Source: an uncultured Gemmatimonadales bacterium | GTDB taxonomy: Bacteria; Gemmatimonadota; Gemmatimonadetes; Longimicrobiales; RSA9 | Assembly: GCA_963708135.1 (NCBI GenBank) | Contig: OY970192.1 | Span: forward strand, 576,001-640,000 | DNA length: 64,000 nt | Direction: 5' to 3' | Shown here: in pieces, positions 51,729-58,350 of the stretch | Position numbering within the stretch: the first letter of the stretch is position 1 | How the letters are laid out: each line of letters begins with the position of its first letter | Notes under the pieces: generated by a model | Databases searched by the model: none | Told to the model about the DNA's origin: nothing | The model's input: the letters and a program-made list of their open reading frames with translations, nothing else | Translations under genes and position numbers: made by a program

Positions 51729-52966
51729 GCTTCTGCCTCCCTGCGTCGCTTCGTGGCGAAGTGGAGCCCGACCGAGCCCAGCAGCGTGAGCACGCCCGCC
51801 ATCGGCCACATGAACGGATACCCCCGGTACTGCGGGAACACGTGCGCGCCGACGTCGATGGCGACGCCCACCAGCATCGGCGCGAAGATGCGCCCGAAGC
51901 TGACGCTCAGGATGTAGAGCCCGGTGTAGCGGCCGATCGCCTTGTTGCCCACTATGCCCGCGAAGAGCGGGTACGGCAATGCGACGAGCGCCGCCGCGCC
52001 CACGCCGGCGCCGAGCAGCAGCAGCACCGCCGTTCCCAGGGTCCGCATGAACACGCCCGCCAGCATGACCACGCCGAGCAGCCCCGCGCCGACCTGGAGC
52101 AGCACCGCGCGGTCGTAGCGGTCGCCCAGCCGGCCGATCACCACCGACCCGATCGCCAGCCCCACCACCAGCAGCGTCATCATGAGGGAGGCCTGCGCCA
52201 CGGTGATGCCCAGCACGACCGTGCCGAACAGGAAGAAGTAGGGCCGCACGCCATCGACGGCTCCCGTCCACAGCGCGTTCGAGACCAGGAACAGCAGCGC
52301 GGCCGGCCGCTGGCGCAGGTCCGCCCAGAGCGCCCGCAGCCCGCCCGAGATGCGTTCCTCGTGCATGGCAAGGTCGAGTCCCGCGGGCGGCGCCGCCCAG
52401 ATCGTCATCCAGGTCATCCCGAGGATCAGCAGGGCGCCCAGCAGGAACGGGAGCGGCGGCCAGATCGCGTACAGCAGCCCGCTCGCCACCAGGCCGAAGC
52501 CGAGCCCCGCCGAGTGCAGCACGCCGCGTACGCCCTGCACCCGGCCTCGCCGCTCATCCGGCACCGAGTCAACCATCAGGGCCCAGAGCGGCGTCAGATA
52601 TCCGTGCAGCGCGGCGAAGAAGATGAAAGCGACCCCGGCCAGCGGCCAGTAGCCGCGAAGGAACGGTGCCGTGGCCAGGGCGGCGGCCATCAGCGGTGCG
52701 GTGATCATGAGGAAGAAGGTGCGCCGCCCGAAGCGGCGCGTCAGTCCGGCGGGCAGATGGTCGCTGAGCGTGCCGATCCAGTACGGGACCAGCAGCGCGA
52801 AGATGCCCTCGCCGCCCACGGCGAATCCGATCAGGAACGCGGAGCGGGCGTAGCGCGCGAGCAGCACCGGCAGGACGGCGACCATGAGCGTCTGCCCGGA
52901 CGTCGAGCCCAGGGTGCCCGCCGTGATGCCGTACTCCTTCAGGATCCGTCCGCGCCGGCTCGTCAC
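51725..52966 (-). CDS. MFS transporter
   Basis: GTLSD..RFGRR and GRLGDRYDR motif-A loops; about 12 TM helices; ATGA overlap with the NAPRTase gene. Confidence 0.85.
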   Translation of the reverse strand: MTSRRGRILKEYGITAGTLGSTSGQTLMVAVLPVLLARYARSAFLIGFAVGGEGIFALLVPYWIGTLSDHLPAGLTRRFGRRTFFLMITAPLMAAALATAPFLRGYWPLAGVAFIFFAALHGYLTPLWALMVDSVPDERRGRVQGVRGVLHSAGLGFGLVASGLLYAIWPPLPFLLGALLILGMTWMTIWAAPPAGLDLAMHEERISGGLRALWADLRQRPAALLFLVSNALWTGAVDGVRPYFFLFGTVVLGITVAQASLMMTLLVVGLAIGSVVIGRLGDRYDRAVLLQVGAGLLGVVMLAGVFMRTLGTAVLLLLGAGVGAAALVALPYPLFAGIVGNKAIGRYTGLYILSVSFGRIFAPMLVGVAIDVGAHVFPQYRGYPFMWPMAGVLTLLGSVGLHFATKRRREAEA

Positions 52967-53132
52967 CGATTCACTCGTCCCCTCGCTCTGCCGTCCCTCG
53001 AATCCGGCGGCCGCGGCCGCGGGGCCAATCTGGCGCGCCTGCGTCGAACGTCAAGCAAGGCCGGGGCCCGCGCGCCGTCCGGATGGACGCTCGGGACCCG
53101 ACCGGCCTGGCGCTTGCACCCTCCATCGCCTC

Positions 53133-54236
53133 ATGCGCGCAGCCAGCCTCCTGCTTCCCCTGGTCCTTGCCGCCGCGCCGCTCTCGGCCCAGGCGATCCG
53201 GCTCCGCGCCTTCACGCTATCCACCGGACCCCGCCTCTCCGCCGGCACGCGCGGCACCGCCCTCTTCGCCGCCGCCGCCGACCTCTCGTTGCCCTGGCTG
53301 GGAGCCGGCCGGGCGCGGGTGGAGCTCGGCACGTCGAGCGCGCCCCTCGACCCGGAGGACGGTCCCGGGACGCGCCGGGACCGCCAGGCGACGCTCGGAT
53401 ACGCCCGCTGCCTCGGCTCCGCCGCCGCCGTCGGCCTCGGCGGCATCCGGCCGCGGGTCGGCGTCGGCATCGCCCTCCACTGGGTGCGCACCGACGCTCT
53501 CGCCCATGCCGGGGACACGACCGGGGACGGGCGCTTCGCCCGCCGGAGCTCCGCCGTGCGCCCCGCGCTCCACGCCGAGACCGGCCTCGCCCTGCCCCTC
53601 GCTCGCAACCACCGCCTCGACCTCGAGATCGCCGCGCGGGCGGCGGCCCTCCTGGGCGGCCCAGACGCGCTCGAACTCCGCTTCGGCGTGCGCTACGCGC
53701 TCGACGGCCGACCTTCCGGGTTGGTCGCCGGGGAGCCTGTGGCCGCGCCTCCGGACCCACCGGCCGACGTCGAGCCGGCCCCGGCGCCGGGTGTGGCCGC
53801 ACCCGGCGCCACCGGCGCCGCTGCGCTCCCCGCCGCCATCCGCGCCGCCTTCCGGACGGCGCTCTCCAACGCCCTCGCGGACGCCGCGGATCGGGGGCTT
53901 ATCCGGGAGGAAGGGCCCGGCTTCGCCCTCCTCGACTCCGCCTTCATCGGCGGCCGGCTGCGGCCCGAGACGGCCGCGGCGCTGCGGCGGGCCGGCGCTC
54001 GCCTGACCACGGCGGGCGCCCGGGTCTCGATCCTCGCCGACGAGGACGCGGATGCGACGGCCCGTCCGTCCACCGCCACGCTGCGGGCCGTGGCGGTGGC
54101 GCAGGCGCTCGCGGCCGGCGGGCTCGCGCGCTCCGCGATGCGCCTGGAGGTGGTGCGCCGGGCCGCCGGCGGCGACGTCGCCGTGCGGCCCCGCCGCCTC
54201 AGCGCCCGCGCTGCGCCAGCGTCACCCCGCCGATGA
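53133..54236 (+). CDS. hypothetical exported protein (beta-barrel-like N-terminus, degenerate OmpA-C-like C-terminus)
   Basis: Signal LSA|Q; amphipathic strands ending LRFGVRY; Pro-rich linker; LRAVAVAQALAAGGL. Confidence 0.45.
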   Translation: MRAASLLLPLVLAAAPLSAQAIRLRAFTLSTGPRLSAGTRGTALFAAAADLSLPWLGAGRARVELGTSSAPLDPEDGPGTRRDRQATLGYARCLGSAAAVGLGGIRPRVGVGIALHWVRTDALAHAGDTTGDGRFARRSSAVRPALHAETGLALPLARNHRLDLEIAARAAALLGGPDALELRFGVRYALDGRPSGLVAGEPVAAPPDPPADVEPAPAPGVAAPGATGAAALPAAIRAAFRTALSNALADAADRGLIREEGPGFALLDSAFIGGRLRPETAAALRRAGARLTTAGARVSILADEDADATARPSTATLRAVAVAQALAAGGLARSAMRLEVVRRAAGGDVAVRPRRLSARAAPASPRR

Positions 54237-54511
54237 TGACCGCGGCGCCCACGAGCTGGAGCGCACGCGGAACCTCGCCGAGCCAGGCCCACGCGACGAG
54301 CAGCGCCAGCACGGGCACGAGGTTGGAGTACGTCGAGGTGCGTGTATTGCCGAGACGGCTGACGCCGCGGTACCAGAGCAGGTACGCCAGCCCGATGCTC
54401 AGCGCGCCCGAGAACGTCACGGCCGCCCATGCCTCCAGGGGCACGGCGTCGAGATCCACGCCGCGCAGCGCCGGTAGGCCCATGAGACACCCTGTGTCAA
54501 CCCCCCTGTGT

Positions 54512-55759
54512 TCAAGCAGCCGCCGCGGTGGGTTCCGCGGGGGTGAAGAAGGGGATAGCCCGTCCGTGTCGGGAGGGGTCGTAGGTGGACCGATTGTGCC
54601 AGCAGCGCCACAGCACGCGGACCCAGGCTCGGGCGAGGATTCGGATTGCGTGCGGGTGATCGCAGCCGCGGGCACGGGCGCACTTGTAGACGGCGGCGGC
54701 CCAGGGGTGGGCATGGCGGGAGTTGTCCGCCCAGGTGGTGAGGGCTTGTCGCAGGCGCTTGTTGCAGGCGAAGCGGCAGGCGACGCCGCGATGCTTGCCG
54801 GAGCTGTGCGTAACGGGGGCGACGCCGGCTTCGGCGGCGAGCTGGGCGTCGGTGGCGAAGCGGAGCCGGTCGTCGCCGAGCTCGGCGAGAATCTGGGCGG
54901 CATTGATGGTGCCGGTGCGGGGGAAGGACTTCAGGATCTCACCGTCGGGATGCTGCGCGAGGTGAGCGGCGATGAGCCCGTCGAGCTCGCGGATCTGAGC
55001 CACGAGAGGGCGGAGGACGGCGACCAGGGAACGGACGAGCTGACCTTTGGTCTCGCTCTCGAGCTCGGCGGCCTGCCCTGCGGGGGCGGAGCGGAGCCGC
55101 TCGAGGAGCTGATCGACCGGCCGGCGGCCGCAGTAGGCAGTGCGCTTGAGGAATCGTTCGAGGCGCTTGGGCCCGAGGCGGGCGGCGCTCTCCGGGGTGG
55201 GGTAGGCGTCCAGGAAATCGAGGGCGATCGGGCTATCGACATCGGCGAAAATGGCGGCAGCGCCGGCCCAGAAGCTGTCGAGCAGGCTGCGGAGCTGATT
55301 GGCGAGCTGGACGCGGGTCGCGACCAGGTCATCGCGGGTGCGAACGGCGGCGCGAAGCGCCTTGGTGCGATCGGAGGGGACCCGGAGCGGCCGGAATCGA
55401 TGCCCATCGGTACGCAGGACGTCGGCGAGGATGTAGGCATCACCGGGATCGCTCTTCCCCGGAGCCGCGGCGTAGCGGGGCCGGGTGGCCTTGAGGGCGT
55501 TCGGGTGGATCGGAACGACCGGGAAGCCGGCCTCGACCAACGTATCCACCAGAAGTCCGGACGGCCGCTCGATGGCGATGGGCAGCTGCGCCGGAGAGCT
55601 GACGCGACGCAGGCGCCGGATCAGCTCACTCAGCCCACCGGCCGTGTGAGGGATGGTGAACGCGTCAACGAGGGCGCCGCTGAGATCGAGCACACAGACG
55701 TCATGCTTGTCGCTGGCCCAGTCAATTCCGACGAGGTAGCTTGGATCCAGTCCTTCCAC
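54512..55759 (-). CDS. IS110-family transposase/recombinase
   Basis: RuvC-like DEDD residues in GIDWAS, AIERPS and KSDPGDA; Tnp domain AGVAPVTHSSGK (catalytic Ser), NKRLRQAL; GGAGGTGA RBS before the GTG. Confidence 0.95.
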   Translation of the reverse strand: MEGLDPSYLVGIDWASDKHDVCVLDLSGALVDAFTIPHTAGGLSELIRRLRRVSSPAQLPIAIERPSGLLVDTLVEAGFPVVPIHPNALKATRPRYAAAPGKSDPGDAYILADVLRTDGHRFRPLRVPSDRTKALRAAVRTRDDLVATRVQLANQLRSLLDSFWAGAAAIFADVDSPIALDFLDAYPTPESAARLGPKRLERFLKRTAYCGRRPVDQLLERLRSAPAGQAAELESETKGQLVRSLVAVLRPLVAQIRELDGLIAAHLAQHPDGEILKSFPRTGTINAAQILAELGDDRLRFATDAQLAAEAGVAPVTHSSGKHRGVACRFACNKRLRQALTTWADNSRHAHPWAAAVYKCARARGCDHPHAIRILARAWVRVLWRCWHNRSTYDPSRHGRAIPFFTPAEPTAAAA

Positions 55760-55789
55760 GCCTCACCTCCGAGCAGAGATTCACTCCCT

Positions 55790-56000
55790 CGCTCCGGCGT
55801 TGGAAGGTCTCACCGATCGCTCACTGAAAGGCGCTCTCGGCTTCAGGTGCCGTGGCGCTACACCCTGTGGTCGGTTGGGGCCTTCCACGCCGGGCAGGGG
55901 AGCGGGTCTCATGCGGGCCGTCGAGCGGCAAGCGACGCTGGCTCTCCCTACCCGGACGCCGAAGCACTTCTCTTGAGCGGCGCGAATCTACGCCCCGCTG
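55790..56000 (-). ncRNA. putative IS110 bridge RNA (5' hairpin, target-binding loop, donor-binding loop)
   Basis: Stems 55941-55955/55890-55903 and 55881-55893/55794-55807 enclose internal loops. Loop strands CACAGGGUGU and CAGUGAG match the circle junction, and CAUGAG matches the target site. Confidence 0.75.
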
Positions 56001-57011
56001 AGGGTAAGGTGCACCAGTGAGCACGATGCCCGCCGTGCCGCACCACAGCGTCCAGGCGGTGACCGGGATCGGGCCGTAGCGCTCCACGAGGTCGCGCGCC
56101 CCGACCGTGTAGAGCGACCAGGAAGTCGATGCGCCCAGCATGATCGCCTCGCCGGCCGCCGAGGAGCCGCCCGCCTGCGCACCCGGGCCGCCCAGCACGA
56201 CGAGCGCCATCCCCGCCACCGTCGCCACCACCCCCACCCACGTGGCGGCACCCACGCGCTCGTGCCCGACGGCCGCCGAGAGCAAGGCCGTCAGGACCGG
56301 CGAACCGGCCAGCAGCAGGCTCGCGATCCCCGCCCGCGTCATTGCCAGCCCCGAGATGAACAGGATCTGGTAGAGCACGTTTCCCACCAGCCCCAGGACG
56401 AGCACCCGCGGCACGTCCGCTCGAGCCGGCAGCGGCACCGGGCCGCGTGCCCGCAAGACGGCGTAGACCACGAGCGAGGCCAGGGGGAAGCGGAGCGCGT
56501 TGAAGCCGAGCGGCGGAAGGACCGCGAGCGCATCCTTCGCGACGGAGAAGTTCACGGCCCAGATGACGACCATCACGAGCAGGCCGCGGCCCGGGTTCCA
56601 CGGCGCGGGCGCGTGGCCGGTGGTCCCTGCCGGGCCCCGCGCGGAGCCGCGCACGGCGGGGAGAGGCCTCACCGGTACGCGACCGCGGCGAGGACGTTCG
56701 CCAGCGCTGGAGGCGGGTGGGTGGACCCGTGGACGAGACAGACGAGGCTCACGAGGTCTCCGGTGCACACACGGTCGGACAGGGCCGGCGGCCACGAGGG
56801 CCGCCTGCCGGCAAGATCCGCGGCCTTGCCGGACCCCGCAAGCGCGCGCGCCGTGCCACGTGGAGCGGCGGCGAGTCTCTGCACGAAGGCACTCGGAGCT
56901 GAGCCCTGGCCGGCCAACCCGCGCCGCGGAGCACTGCTTGCGGCGCCCGCTCGCGCGGGCCAACTTCAGCCGCTGGACGGCCGTGGAGGCACGCTCGCGA
57001 AGGAGGGCGCA

Positions 57012-57287
57012 TTGGTTGCCGCAGTGGTGCTGATCCGGGTCGCGCGCGAGCACATACCGCAGGCAGCGCGCGAGGTGGCCGGGATCGAGGGGGTGTCGGA
57101 GGTCTACTCGGTCTCCGGTGACTGGGACCTCGTCGCCATCCTGCGCGTCCCGGAGTGGGAGCAGATCGCGCAGGTGGTGACGGAGCGGCTCGCGGCGATC
57201 GGCGGCATCGAGTCGACCAACACGCTCGTGGCGTTCCGGGTCTACTCGAAGCAGGACCTGGAGGGCGCGTTCGACATGTTCGAGTAG
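57012..57287 (+). CDS. Lrp/AsnC ligand-binding (RAM) domain protein
   Basis: TTG start after AGGAGG; IEGVSEVYSVSGDWDLVAILRV, GIESTNTLVAF. Confidence 0.85.
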   Translation: MVAAVVLIRVAREHIPQAAREVAGIEGVSEVYSVSGDWDLVAILRVPEWEQIAQVVTERLAAIGGIESTNTLVAFRVYSKQDLEGAFDMFE

Positions 57288-57295
57288 GCGGGCCT

Positions 57296-58048
57296 CTACT
57301 CGCGCACTTCGTTGGGTGGGCGGGTGGCAGCCTCCGGCGCCGGCGGCTCCTCTGCGGTGGGCCGGGCAGGGGCGTGGCGCTCCGGCGCGGCGTAGCGGTG
57401 GCGCTGGTACATGTCGCGCGCGATCTCGCCGGCGATGCCCTGGGCACCAAGGCCGAAGGCGATGCCGGCGGCCAGCGCGCCGGCGCCGACCACCGCGATG
57501 AAGAAGACGAGCACGATATCCTGCGCGATGTCGAGCTGCTCCAGCGCCATGAAGGCGGCCAGCAGGATGACGGCCGCCTTCGCCGCGCGCGCCAGGGTCG
57601 GGCCGCCCGAAACCCCGCCGGCGGAGGCGAGCACGAGGTCCTTGACGAACTCGCCGAGCAGGATGCCGAGGACGAGCACTGCCACGGCGGCCATGACGTG
57701 AGGGATGTAGGCGAGCAGCTCCGCGAAGAGCGAGCTTACCGCGTCCACGCCGAGCGCGTTCGCCGCCAGCAGGATCACGAGCAGCATGAGGGTCCAGAAG
57801 ACCAGCTTGGCCAGGACCGTCGATGGGTCCAGCGAGGTGCCGGCGCGCTCCAGCGCCTCGATGACGCCGCCATCGCGCATCCAGCGATCGAAGCCAACGC
57901 GGTGCAGCGCGATGTCGGTCCCTCGCTCCACCATCTTGGCGATCGCGTAGCCCGCGAGCAGGAGCCCGAGCGCGGCGGCGAGGTGGGGCAGGAACTCGAC
58001 GATCTGGACGATTCCGTCCTGGAGTCGCTGGCTCAGGGCTTCCTGCAT
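57296..58048 (-). CDS. TM_helix / small mechanosensitive-channel-related membrane protein (CmpX-like)
   Basis: FLPHLAAAL, YIPHVMAAVAVL, MALEQLDIA, GIAFGLG. Confidence 0.75.
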   Translation of the reverse strand: MQEALSQRLQDGIVQIVEFLPHLAAALGLLLAGYAIAKMVERGTDIALHRVGFDRWMRDGGVIEALERAGTSLDPSTVLAKLVFWTLMLLVILLAANALGVDAVSSLFAELLAYIPHVMAAVAVLVLGILLGEFVKDLVLASAGGVSGGPTLARAAKAAVILLAAFMALEQLDIAQDIVLVFFIAVVGAGALAAGIAFGLGAQGIAGEIARDMYQRHRYAAPERHAPARPTAEEPPAPEAATRPPNEVRE

Positions 58049-58125
58049 CAGGGCGGCCTCCGTCGGGGGTCGAGCGGAACGCTGGGGCCGTGGCCTGGGA
58101 CGCGCAAGGGGCGGGAGGTTGCACG

Positions 58126-58350
58126 ATGCGCCGATTCAGCGATGCGTGGGGGAGGGAGTGGGACGTCGTGGTGGGGAGGGAGTCCTGGGGCACCCTCTAC
58201 GCCCTCTTCGTGCCCGTGGCGGGAACGGAGCCCGTGCGGCAGGTGATGCTCGACTCCGCCGGCTACGAGCAGGCGCAGCTCGAGCTCTCCGACATGGACG
58301 ACGCGGCGCTGGCGGAGCTGTTCCGCCGGACCGGTCCAAAGCAATCCTGA
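58126..58350 (+). CDS. small hypothetical protein
   Basis: GGGAGG RBS; MRRFSDAWGREWDVVVGRESWG. Confidence 0.6.
   Translation: MRRFSDAWGREWDVVVGRESWGTLYALFVPVAGTEPVRQVMLDSAGYEQAQLELSDMDDAALAELFRRTGPKQS

Follow-up and report, generated by a model that had tools for sequence, protein, structure and literature searches.

A putative bridge RNA in the left end of an IS110-group insertion sequence from an uncultured Gemmatimonadales bacterium

The closest counterpart described for the element reported here is IS621 of Escherichia coli, whose bridge RNA and recombinase were presented by Durrant et al. (2024, PMC11208160) and Hiraizumi et al. (2024, PMC11208158), and the bridge-RNA mechanism has been known since 2024. 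The ISCro4/IS622 bridge recombinases (PDB 9t56; 10.1101/2025.05.14.653916) belong to the same protein family and include a distant orthologue, which is compared here by protein only. In this work we analysed 64,000 nt (the window) of contig OY970192.1 from an uncultured Gemmatimonadales bacterium (assembly GCA_963708135.1, positions 576,001 to 640,000), which contains a 1533-bp IS110-family element on the minus strand (window positions 56019-54487) with CT on both sides. We conclude that this is very probably an intact IS110-group insertion sequence whose left end (LE) encodes a two-loop bridge RNA that guides its own recombinase. Features of the element are given on the minus strand unless stated otherwise.

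The IS1111-group elements studied by Siddiquee et al. in 2024 reportedly use a seekRNA to guide a DEDD recombinase of the same family. In that group (PMC11208160), the guide RNA lies in a long right end (RE) and the subterminal inverted repeats are longer. We considered membership of the IS1111 group and rejected it: the window element has an RE of 25 nt and an LE of 260 nt, and the group has a long RE carrying the RNA, a short LE and subterminal inverted repeats of 7-17 bp.

Boundaries, recombinase and relatives of the element

The source genome is a single contig of 5.45 Mb with 72% GC and holds four full copies of the element, which show 0, 0, 1 and 2 differences, every one outside the LE; one further genome match is an unrelated stretch of 36 nt. 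The flanks of the four copies diverge exactly at CT/CACTGG... on the left and ...GGGTGT/CT on the right (slashes mark the element ends), so the ends are fixed independently of any RNA model. CT is found at both ends of all four copies, in the window at 56020-56021 (left) and 54485-54486 (right), and a right-end CT is present in 39 of the 39 relatives with a located right end. The non-coding LE spans 260 nt (55760-56019), and the RE spans 25 nt (54487-54511). A CT core at both ends and an LE far longer than the RE, without long terminal inverted repeats, is the arrangement of the IS110 group, and the core and the long LE and short RE are shared with IS621. With four near-identical copies in the genome, the element seems to have been active recently.

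The recombinase gene (54512-55759) encodes 415 aa from a GTG start codon, with GGAGG located 6 nt upstream. Pfam domains DEDD_Tnp_IS110 (PF01548, E = 2.4e-37) and Transposase_20 (PF02371, E = 2e-17) were assigned to the product. Residues D13, E64, D104, D107 and S320 are invariant across 20 recombinase sequences, and a profile built from these 20 sequences matched the IS621 transposase (8wt6, E = 4.5e-16) and ISCro4 (9t56, E = 3.4e-15) in the PDB, placing the five residues onto the catalytic positions of IS621. The protein combines the DEDD RuvC-like domain and the Tnp domain with a catalytic serine that are found in IS621 and define the IS110 group, although it is related to IS621 at the profile level only.

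To follow the LE through the family, a scan with one genome per species was used, which returned 141 relatives, and the best 80 loci (54-89% identity) were kept. These come from metagenome-assembled genomes labelled Gemmatimonadales, Longimicrobiales and many other phyla. Upstream sequence of 285 nt or more was available for 63 of the 80, which were aligned with the window; seven exact duplicates and 15 loci without a left end aligning as CT/CA were dropped, leaving the window and 41 distinct LEs of relatives (54-81% protein identity), an alignment referred to as A2 and used for the counts below. Right ends were located by means of the anchor T[TGC]GAC and four nearly invariant bases; no right end was located in three loci (L033, L039 and L083) and one (L069) had too little flank.

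Donor loop, target loop and fold of the left end

The sequence-only reading, an earlier inspection of the window without database searches, had proposed that the LE folds into a 5' hairpin and two stems with internal loops, and that one loop encodes both halves of the junction formed by the ends of the excised element. The left strand of this loop, the left donor guide (LDG) CACAGGGUGU (55869-55860), is indeed repeated exactly in the final 10 nt of the RE, the left donor half-site (LD; 54496-54487). The sequence CACAGGGTGT has two matches in the window, both on the minus strand at these two positions, compared with 0.07 expected, and none of 100 shuffles contained two or more. The right strand, the right donor guide (RDG) CAGUGAG (55820-55826), is the exact reverse complement of CTCACTG (56021-56015), composed of the core and the right donor half-site (RD) CACTG, which corresponds to LE nt 1-5 (56015-56019). 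This 7-mer is not significant alone (4 matches in the window versus 6.6 expected), and is meaningful because it covaries in the relatives.

RDG and the core plus RD agreed at 294 of 294 positions in A2, with 42 of 42 perfect 7-mers. The RD falls into four classes, CACTG (22), CATTG (13), CATCA (5) and CATTC (2), each accompanied by a matching guide; the variants CAAUGAG, UGAUGAG and GAAUGAG pair with LE starts CATTG, CATCA and CATTC. LDG and LD agreed at 359 of 390 positions and perfectly in 15 of 39 elements, with 12 guides and 5 LD variants represented. Matches at LDG positions 2-9 occurred in 38-39 of 39 elements, at position 1 in 27 and at position 10 in 22, and each LDG variant carrying a G, AT, AA or A substitution fits the right end of its own element. 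Covariation of loop and donor bases among homologous LEs, which had been named as the check on the proposal, is thus found in A2, and both donor guides follow their own ends as in other IS110-group elements. The LDG is followed by A and G, opposite core C and T; the base facing the core C is C in only 10 of 42 elements and position -1 is matched in 22 of 39, so the proposal that the left donor guide stops before the core holds across the clade. In IS621 the LDG is 8 nt and extends only to the first core base (PMC11208158), compared with 8-10 nt ending before the core here, a modest difference of degree.

The RDG also located the LE start in most of the 15 loci left out of A2. The predicted start was recovered in 12 of them, with the motif found once each. 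In seven of the 12 (L016, L018, L022, L023, L037, L044 and L062) it lies 313-370 nt upstream of the ORF, suggesting that the left end is simply longer there, and the five others have it at positions -232 to -250, where the core is AT or GT. Of the three loci not recovered, two had no upstream sequence and one had no match. A distant branch (L078, L080, L081, L082 and L085) has an AT left junction and a GT right junction, with guides shifted to fit the junctions (RDG CAGTAATG); L085 has GT at the left, and its right end was not located. The ORF of L078 contains an in-frame stop, and this locus was omitted from the protein alignment. In L028, a second copy of the first ~20 nt of its own LE is present in the left flank (~905-950), directly before CT/LE, which may represent an insertion next to or into a donor-like site.

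The fold of the LE agrees with the proposed architecture. The minimum free energy (MFE) of the 260-nt LE is -123.3 kcal/mol (z = -3.0), with 0 of 200 shuffles folding as well, and the MFE structure consists of a 5' hairpin (55976-55999, in a region that aligns poorly among relatives) followed by two stem/internal-loop modules. The 169-nt core of the window copy folds into the same two modules, which also appear in the RNAalifold consensus of A2, with compensatory changes in 26 of 36 pairs. For a named structure of five helices and 33 pairs, 97.8% of the alignment cells were paired, compared with 78.0% in shuffles and 37-44% when the partners were slid by 1-3 columns; 25 of the 33 pairs had changes on both sides, and the covariation score of 0.549 (shuffles, 0.171) was reached by 0 of 500 shuffles.

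The first module is built on a basal stem (helix 1; 5' strand 55941-55955, 3' strand 55890-55903) of 14 pairs, 13 of which changed on both sides, with 97.1% of cells paired. Its internal loop has the 5' strand CAGCGUCGCUU and the 3' strand CCGCAUGAGACCC, and is capped by a distal hairpin (helix 2, 55917-55929) with compensatory changes in three of four pairs. The basal stem of the donor-binding module (helix 3; 5' strand 55881-55887, 3' strand 55801-55807) has seven pairs, six with compensatory changes. The inner stem ACCGA/UCGGU (helix 4; 55871-55875 and 55812-55816) is paired in 100% of cells, with two of four pairs covarying and the pair types divided roughly half and half, and the distal hairpin (helix 5, GCGC/GCGC; 55831-55858) is likewise 100% paired and almost invariant. 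The sequence-only reading had drawn this second stem as 55893-55881 paired with 55807-55794, followed by ACCGA/UCGGU. Both parts are present in the window copy, where helix 3 reaches 55893 and 55794, but the outer 6 bp (CCGGCG/CGCCGG) are confined to the window copy and its two closest relatives and are absent from the consensus. The CCGG of this extension (55890-55893) overlaps the 3' strand that the target-module stem has in the family consensus, and because these bases are shared the two helices cannot both be fully formed. An LE RNA with two stem/internal-loop modules is typical of the IS110 group, and the order of 5' stem-loop, target-binding loop and donor-binding loop corresponds to IS621; a difference is the ~64 nt located 5' of the target module in the window element.

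The first loop, missed by the sequence-only reading, is by its matches to host flanks the target-binding loop. Its right target guide (RTG) GCAUGAG (55908-55914) is the complement of CT-CATGC. The four insertion sites in the genome are CATCGTG-CT-CATGG, GTGCGCG-CT-CATGG, GAGCTCG-CT-CATGC and TGCCGCG-CT-CATGC, and the RTG matches them at 6, 6, 7 and 7 of 7 positions. Across the relatives, the RTG agreed with the core and right target half-site at 253 of 266 positions and perfectly in 27 of 38 elements, with 14 distinct guides; the variant targets include CTCATCG, CTCATAC, CTCACGC, CTCTTAT, CTCAAGC, CTCCTCC and CTGGTTG. The left target guide (LTG) AGCGUCGCU (55931-55939; 7 nt plus the core) covaries with the left flanks. 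It agreed at 252 of 378 positions (permuted mean, 201.9), with 34 guides, 41 flanks and 0 of 42 perfect matches, and the number of matching elements drops with distance from the core (42, 42, 41, 31, 21, 26, 24, 19 and 6 of 42). In guide/DNA permutation tests of all four guides, the observed total was reached by 0 of 10000 permutations. Five relatives (L013, L017, L035, L039 and L048; 63-71% protein identity) have exactly the LTG of the window element, AGCGTCGCT, and four of these, not L048, the same or a near-identical RTG, so the target programme predates much of the protein divergence. An alternative LTG register with a bulged U gave 6-7 of 9 at the four own sites (by hand) but fitted the relatives worse, and was rejected on the basis of relatives with an identical LTG (L013, 6 versus 7; L017, 4 versus 6, by hand).

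Handshake guides, which pair with the non-cognate DNA, were introduced for IS621 (PMC11208158). IS621 and the window element both have a 2-nt handshake guide 3' of the RTG and of the RDG, and in both the LTG and LDG reproduce the top strand of the left halves, with the RTG and RDG complementary to the core and right halves. In the target loop, the handshake guide AC (55906-55907) pairs with the donor GT just before the core, with the first base paired in 39 of 39 and the second in 38 of 39 elements; these bases are almost invariant. Against the element's own target, as a cognate control, the counts were 0 of 42 and 11 of 42. In the donor loop, the handshake guide CG (55818-55819) pairs with the target CG or TG just before the core, its first base being paired with target position -1 in 41 of 42, including two switches (L036 and L083) in which C changed to G together with G to C; against the own donor, the counts were 1 of 39 and 1 of 39. 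Target-loop guides, with the LTG recognised through the covariation in A2, and handshake guides directed at non-cognate DNA are thus present as in the IS110 group.

If the element works like its homologue IS621, it would be excised as a circle, and the joining of RE and LE would create the donor site CACAGGGTGT-CT-CACTG. Carrying the RNA, the DEDD/Ser recombinase would bind this donor through one loop and a genomic ...CG-CT-CATG(C) through the other, cut after CT and exchange strands with the help of the handshake guides AC and CG, after which the junction would be resolved. Insertion would then leave no target duplication beyond the shared CT. By the same analogy, the LE is expected to be transcribed, the recombinase to be catalytically competent and the guides to be reprogrammable.

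We weighed two other explanations of the loop matches. The matches could be DNA-level subterminal repeats that the recombinase reads as DNA, with no guide RNA involved. Guide/DNA covariation alone cannot separate RNA-DNA pairing from a protein reading repeated DNA motifs, and the public RNA data gave contigs of relatives only. However, the repeats lie precisely in the two strands of internal loops whose flanking helices are kept by the compensatory changes described above, and this constraint acts on the RNA; locus-specific host flanks are matched by the other loop (14 RTG variants), where a fixed protein-DNA code fails as an explanation; and the recombinase is a profile-level homologue of IS621, whose RNA guidance was demonstrated by structure (PMC11208158). 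We therefore consider recognition of DNA repeats very improbable. Alternatively, the LE could be only a structured 5' leader that controls translation of the recombinase or stability of its mRNA, with the guide matches remaining from shared ancestry of the element ends. The LE does lie directly upstream of the recombinase start and its Shine-Dalgarno sequence, and small RNAs of IS110 elements have been discussed as regulators of recombinase expression (PMC11208160). Yet a leader does not predict that loop bases of the RTG and LTG track the host flanks at independent sites, nor that the handshake dinucleotides pair only with non-cognate DNA, and this explanation appears exceedingly improbable. 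The reading of the LE as bridge RNA, with its sequence hallmarks present and covarying in the relatives, is supported.

Several observations weigh against the bridge-RNA reading. A single-sequence phmmer search of the recombinase against the PDB gave no match, a profile being required. A search of Rfam returned four matches, all with E > 3 and none within 55790-56021, and no curated family. The permutations ignore relatedness, and the independent variant classes are the better measure of covariation; moreover, the RE anchor used four invariant LD bases, and the inclusion rule for LEs fixed the first two bases of the RD. The LTG matches the four own sites at only 3, 4, 5 and 6 of 9 positions including the core, and against the predicted 14-nt target the occupied sites score 7, 8, 10 and 11 of 14 (by hand from the flanks) at the same time as 157 unoccupied CTCATG sites score at least 11. 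A perfect 14-nt target is present at none of the 2346 CTCATG sites in the genome, with two sites scoring 13 and 21 scoring 12. From these scores, insertion looks driven by the right half and positions -1 and -2. Half-match insertions have been reported for IS621 (10.64898/2026.08.31.748434), and the target use of the window element is reminiscent of these.

Expression signals raise further points of the same kind. Neither a sigma-70-type promoter nor a terminator was predicted in the integrated copy. The RE contains a perfect -35-like TTGACA (54500-54495), which overlaps the left donor half-site and lies 8 nt from the core; in relatives the LD is preceded by TTGACA, TGGACA or TCGACA. The IS110 group is expected to regain a promoter across the joined ends of the circle (PMC11208160), and the position of TTGACA in the RE fits. 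On inspection of the joined ends, only this -35 is convincing; no -10 candidate does better than CACCTT, which lies at 18-nt spacing and agrees at 2 of 6 positions. CACCTT (56006-56011) is conserved, with LE A10, C11 and C12 nearly invariant; it may be a Shine-Dalgarno-like AAGGTG on the plus strand or, alternatively, the weak -10 of a junction promoter. In public RNA data, only two metatranscriptome runs contained parts of the element (word shares 0.05 and 0.04). RNA-library contigs of close relatives from two studies covered the LE with 176 nt on 55762-55935 and 194 nt on 55728-55915, leaving most of the element uncovered. These contigs are a weak hint of an RNA signal: they come from relatives and not from the source organism, they tell neither the strand nor the ends or level of an RNA, and DNA can be present in libraries of this kind.

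Start-codon targeting and the antisense frame

IS900 reportedly targets translation initiation signals, as the title of a 1997 paper by Doran et al. has it. This IS110-family element of Mycobacterium avium subsp. paratuberculosis carries the ORF hed, which, in the description given in PMC8141618, lies on the complementary strand, spans the whole element and lacks a ribosome binding site and start codon of its own. The window element resembles IS900 in its start-codon and antisense arrangement, as detailed below. Both are IS110-family elements with a second, element-spanning ORF complementary to the transposase, a likeness drawn from the published description of IS900. The window element inserts directly after ATG-AG, captures the host start and rebuilds a new start at its other end. 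We also considered ISPpu9 (PMC12288879) as a precedent for start-codon targeting and rejected it, as it is described there to insert into REP sequences.

Read on the other strand, the target CT-CATG gives CATG-AG. Of the four genome copies, three are located exactly after the ATG-AG of opposite-strand ORFs (219, 598 and 337 codons), two of which were confirmed by a profile match from the N-terminus, to RnfD/NqrB (E = 3.5e-105) and to an amidase behind a twin-arginine-like leader. At the window copy, comparison of flanks gives the left target half-site CATCGTG (56022-56028) and the right target half-site CATGG (54480-54484), and the element interrupts an EamA-family transporter gene (minus strand; 5' part 56022-56621, 3' part 54202-54483), with PF00892 recognised by Pfam on both fragments (E = 8.1e-17 and 1e-24). 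For a wider view, we assembled the sites whose right half is of start-codon type (CAT, CAC or CAA) and whose flanks each extend over 60 codons or more, 35 in all, and took as coding frame of the left flank the one that was open for at least 60 codons and had the highest GC3. The left flank was coding in exactly the start-codon frame at 25 of the 35 sites, and at 24 of these the frame changes upstream; at 14 sites, an upstream ORF on the same strand ends at an overlapping TGA, forming an xTGA stop/start junction. Gene-start-like sites numbered 24 of 35, compared with 24% of all CATGAG motifs (binomial p ~3e-8), a baseline taken from the window's genome only.

In 72% GC DNA, open frames alone mean little. 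Very long spurious ORFs typical of such DNA are present on both strands around the element, at 51761-56020 (plus strand, 1419 aa) and 55821-58193 (minus strand, 790 aa). On the plus strand, a stop-free frame runs through the element from a flank-derived ATG (54482-54484) to a TGA (56018-56020), the whole occupying 54482-56020, and the terminal TGA overlaps a GTG (56017-56019). The length of the element is divisible by three in 37 of 39 relatives, with 18 distinct 3n lengths (1455-1653 bp). In 27 of 39, the frame set by the start codon of the flank crosses the entire element without a stop, ending at the TGA formed by LE end and core, and in five more it ends one codon earlier, at TGATGAG; the other two antisense frames contain 4-20 stops. 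Over the recombinase gene the antisense frame is codon-on-codon, and its openness there is expected because GC-rich codon usage keeps such a frame open anyway. The non-coding LE is a different matter: of 39 distinct LEs, 37 have a length of 2 mod 3 when taken alone (13 distinct lengths), and in 31 the antisense frame is free of internal stops, compared with 17% of shuffled LEs. This length and this open frame are not explained by GC-rich codon usage. Eleven of 12 further loci with longer or variant LEs fit the same rule (by hand arithmetic).

The far end of the frame has features of a translation start. The terminal TGA overlaps a GTG or ATG that is the complement of the first three bases of the LE and lies in frame with the interrupted gene. 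Read on the other strand, the LE start CACTGGTGCACCTT (56006-56019) gives AAGGTG, 5 nt and GTG, resembling a Shine-Dalgarno sequence and start codon; where the LE of a relative starts differently, a purine-rich motif is kept 5-8 nt ahead of ATG or GTG (e.g. GAGGTTGCCTGATG). A complementary ORF that extends over the whole element without start signals of its own, together with insertion at translation initiation signals, marks IS900-like elements with a hed-type antisense ORF, and the window element shows both. RTGs matching motifs other than the start motif (CTCTTAT, CTGGTTG, CTCCTCC, CTCCCCC and CTGCTAG) occur among L045, L049, L064, L065, L062 and L055; neither the 3n length nor the open antisense frame is left in L064, and L045 and L065 keep both.

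Conservation of the LE could in this light be due mainly to a hed-like protein encoded by the antisense ORF, with the RNA fold secondary, and the length rule and the paucity of internal stops in the LE speak for such an origin. A search of Pfam with the 512-aa antisense product returned no family, and in the LE the antisense frame showed no codon periodicity (GC 0.66, 0.67 and 0.71, and column entropy 0.95, 0.91 and 0.97, for the three codon positions). These results suggest that the constraint is one of staying open and in frame and not of a conserved protein. Protein coding also leaves the compensatory base-pair changes unexplained, and the two constraints can coexist; we regard a mainly protein-coding origin of LE conservation as extremely unlikely and retain the bridge RNA as the explanation of the fold and its guides.

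Together, the site preference and the antisense frame allow a further, tentative proposal, which we hold to be plausible though somewhat short of probable: that the target loop is set to the start motif (A/G/T)TG-AG on the strand opposite the recombinase gene, and that the element forms an in-frame antisense cassette, acting as a translationally coupled extra cistron. Insertion would often occur where two genes of an operon overlap at an xTGA stop/start. From the captured start codon of the host, a frame would open that crosses RE, recombinase gene and bridge-RNA region, and this frame would end at the TGA from LE end and core, overlapping a regenerated GTG or ATG behind the Shine-Dalgarno-like motif. 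The downstream host gene would stay translatable, which could lower the cost of insertion, or the arrangement could provide for host-dependent antisense expression. In one literature collection, no paper from 2024 on was found that joined "host expression dependent" with bridge RNA.

Place among bridge-RNA systems

Judged from its sequence and that of its relatives, the system is a genuine and apparently active bridge-RNA recombinase that belongs to the IS110-group bridge-RNA systems and is not a new kind. It departs from IS621 in several details of its guides: the RTG has at least 7 nt compared with 4 in IS621, the RDG is a contiguous 7-mer and not discontiguous with flipped-out U residues, and the natural target is a short start-codon motif, compared with the longer, more specific site of IS621. 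What the locus adds is a complete natural covariation record and the design combining a start codon with an antisense frame. It is a well-documented natural bridge-RNA orthologue from a GC-rich soil lineage in which the four guides and the two handshake guides are backed by natural covariation, and the length of its RTG, its contiguous RDG and an LDG that stops short of the core may be of use in working out design rules for bridge recombinases.

Should the side observations hold, they would suggest that the RNA-guided insertion sequences of an entire clade are directed at translation start sites, and that selection maintains a 3n length and a stop-free antisense strand even across the RNA-coding LE. 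The in-frame cassette, if true, would provide a mechanistic, bridge-RNA account of the 1997 observation on IS900 hed. It would also link the programme of the target loop to the fitness cost of insertion, and would give the long-unexplained hed-type ORF a testable function.

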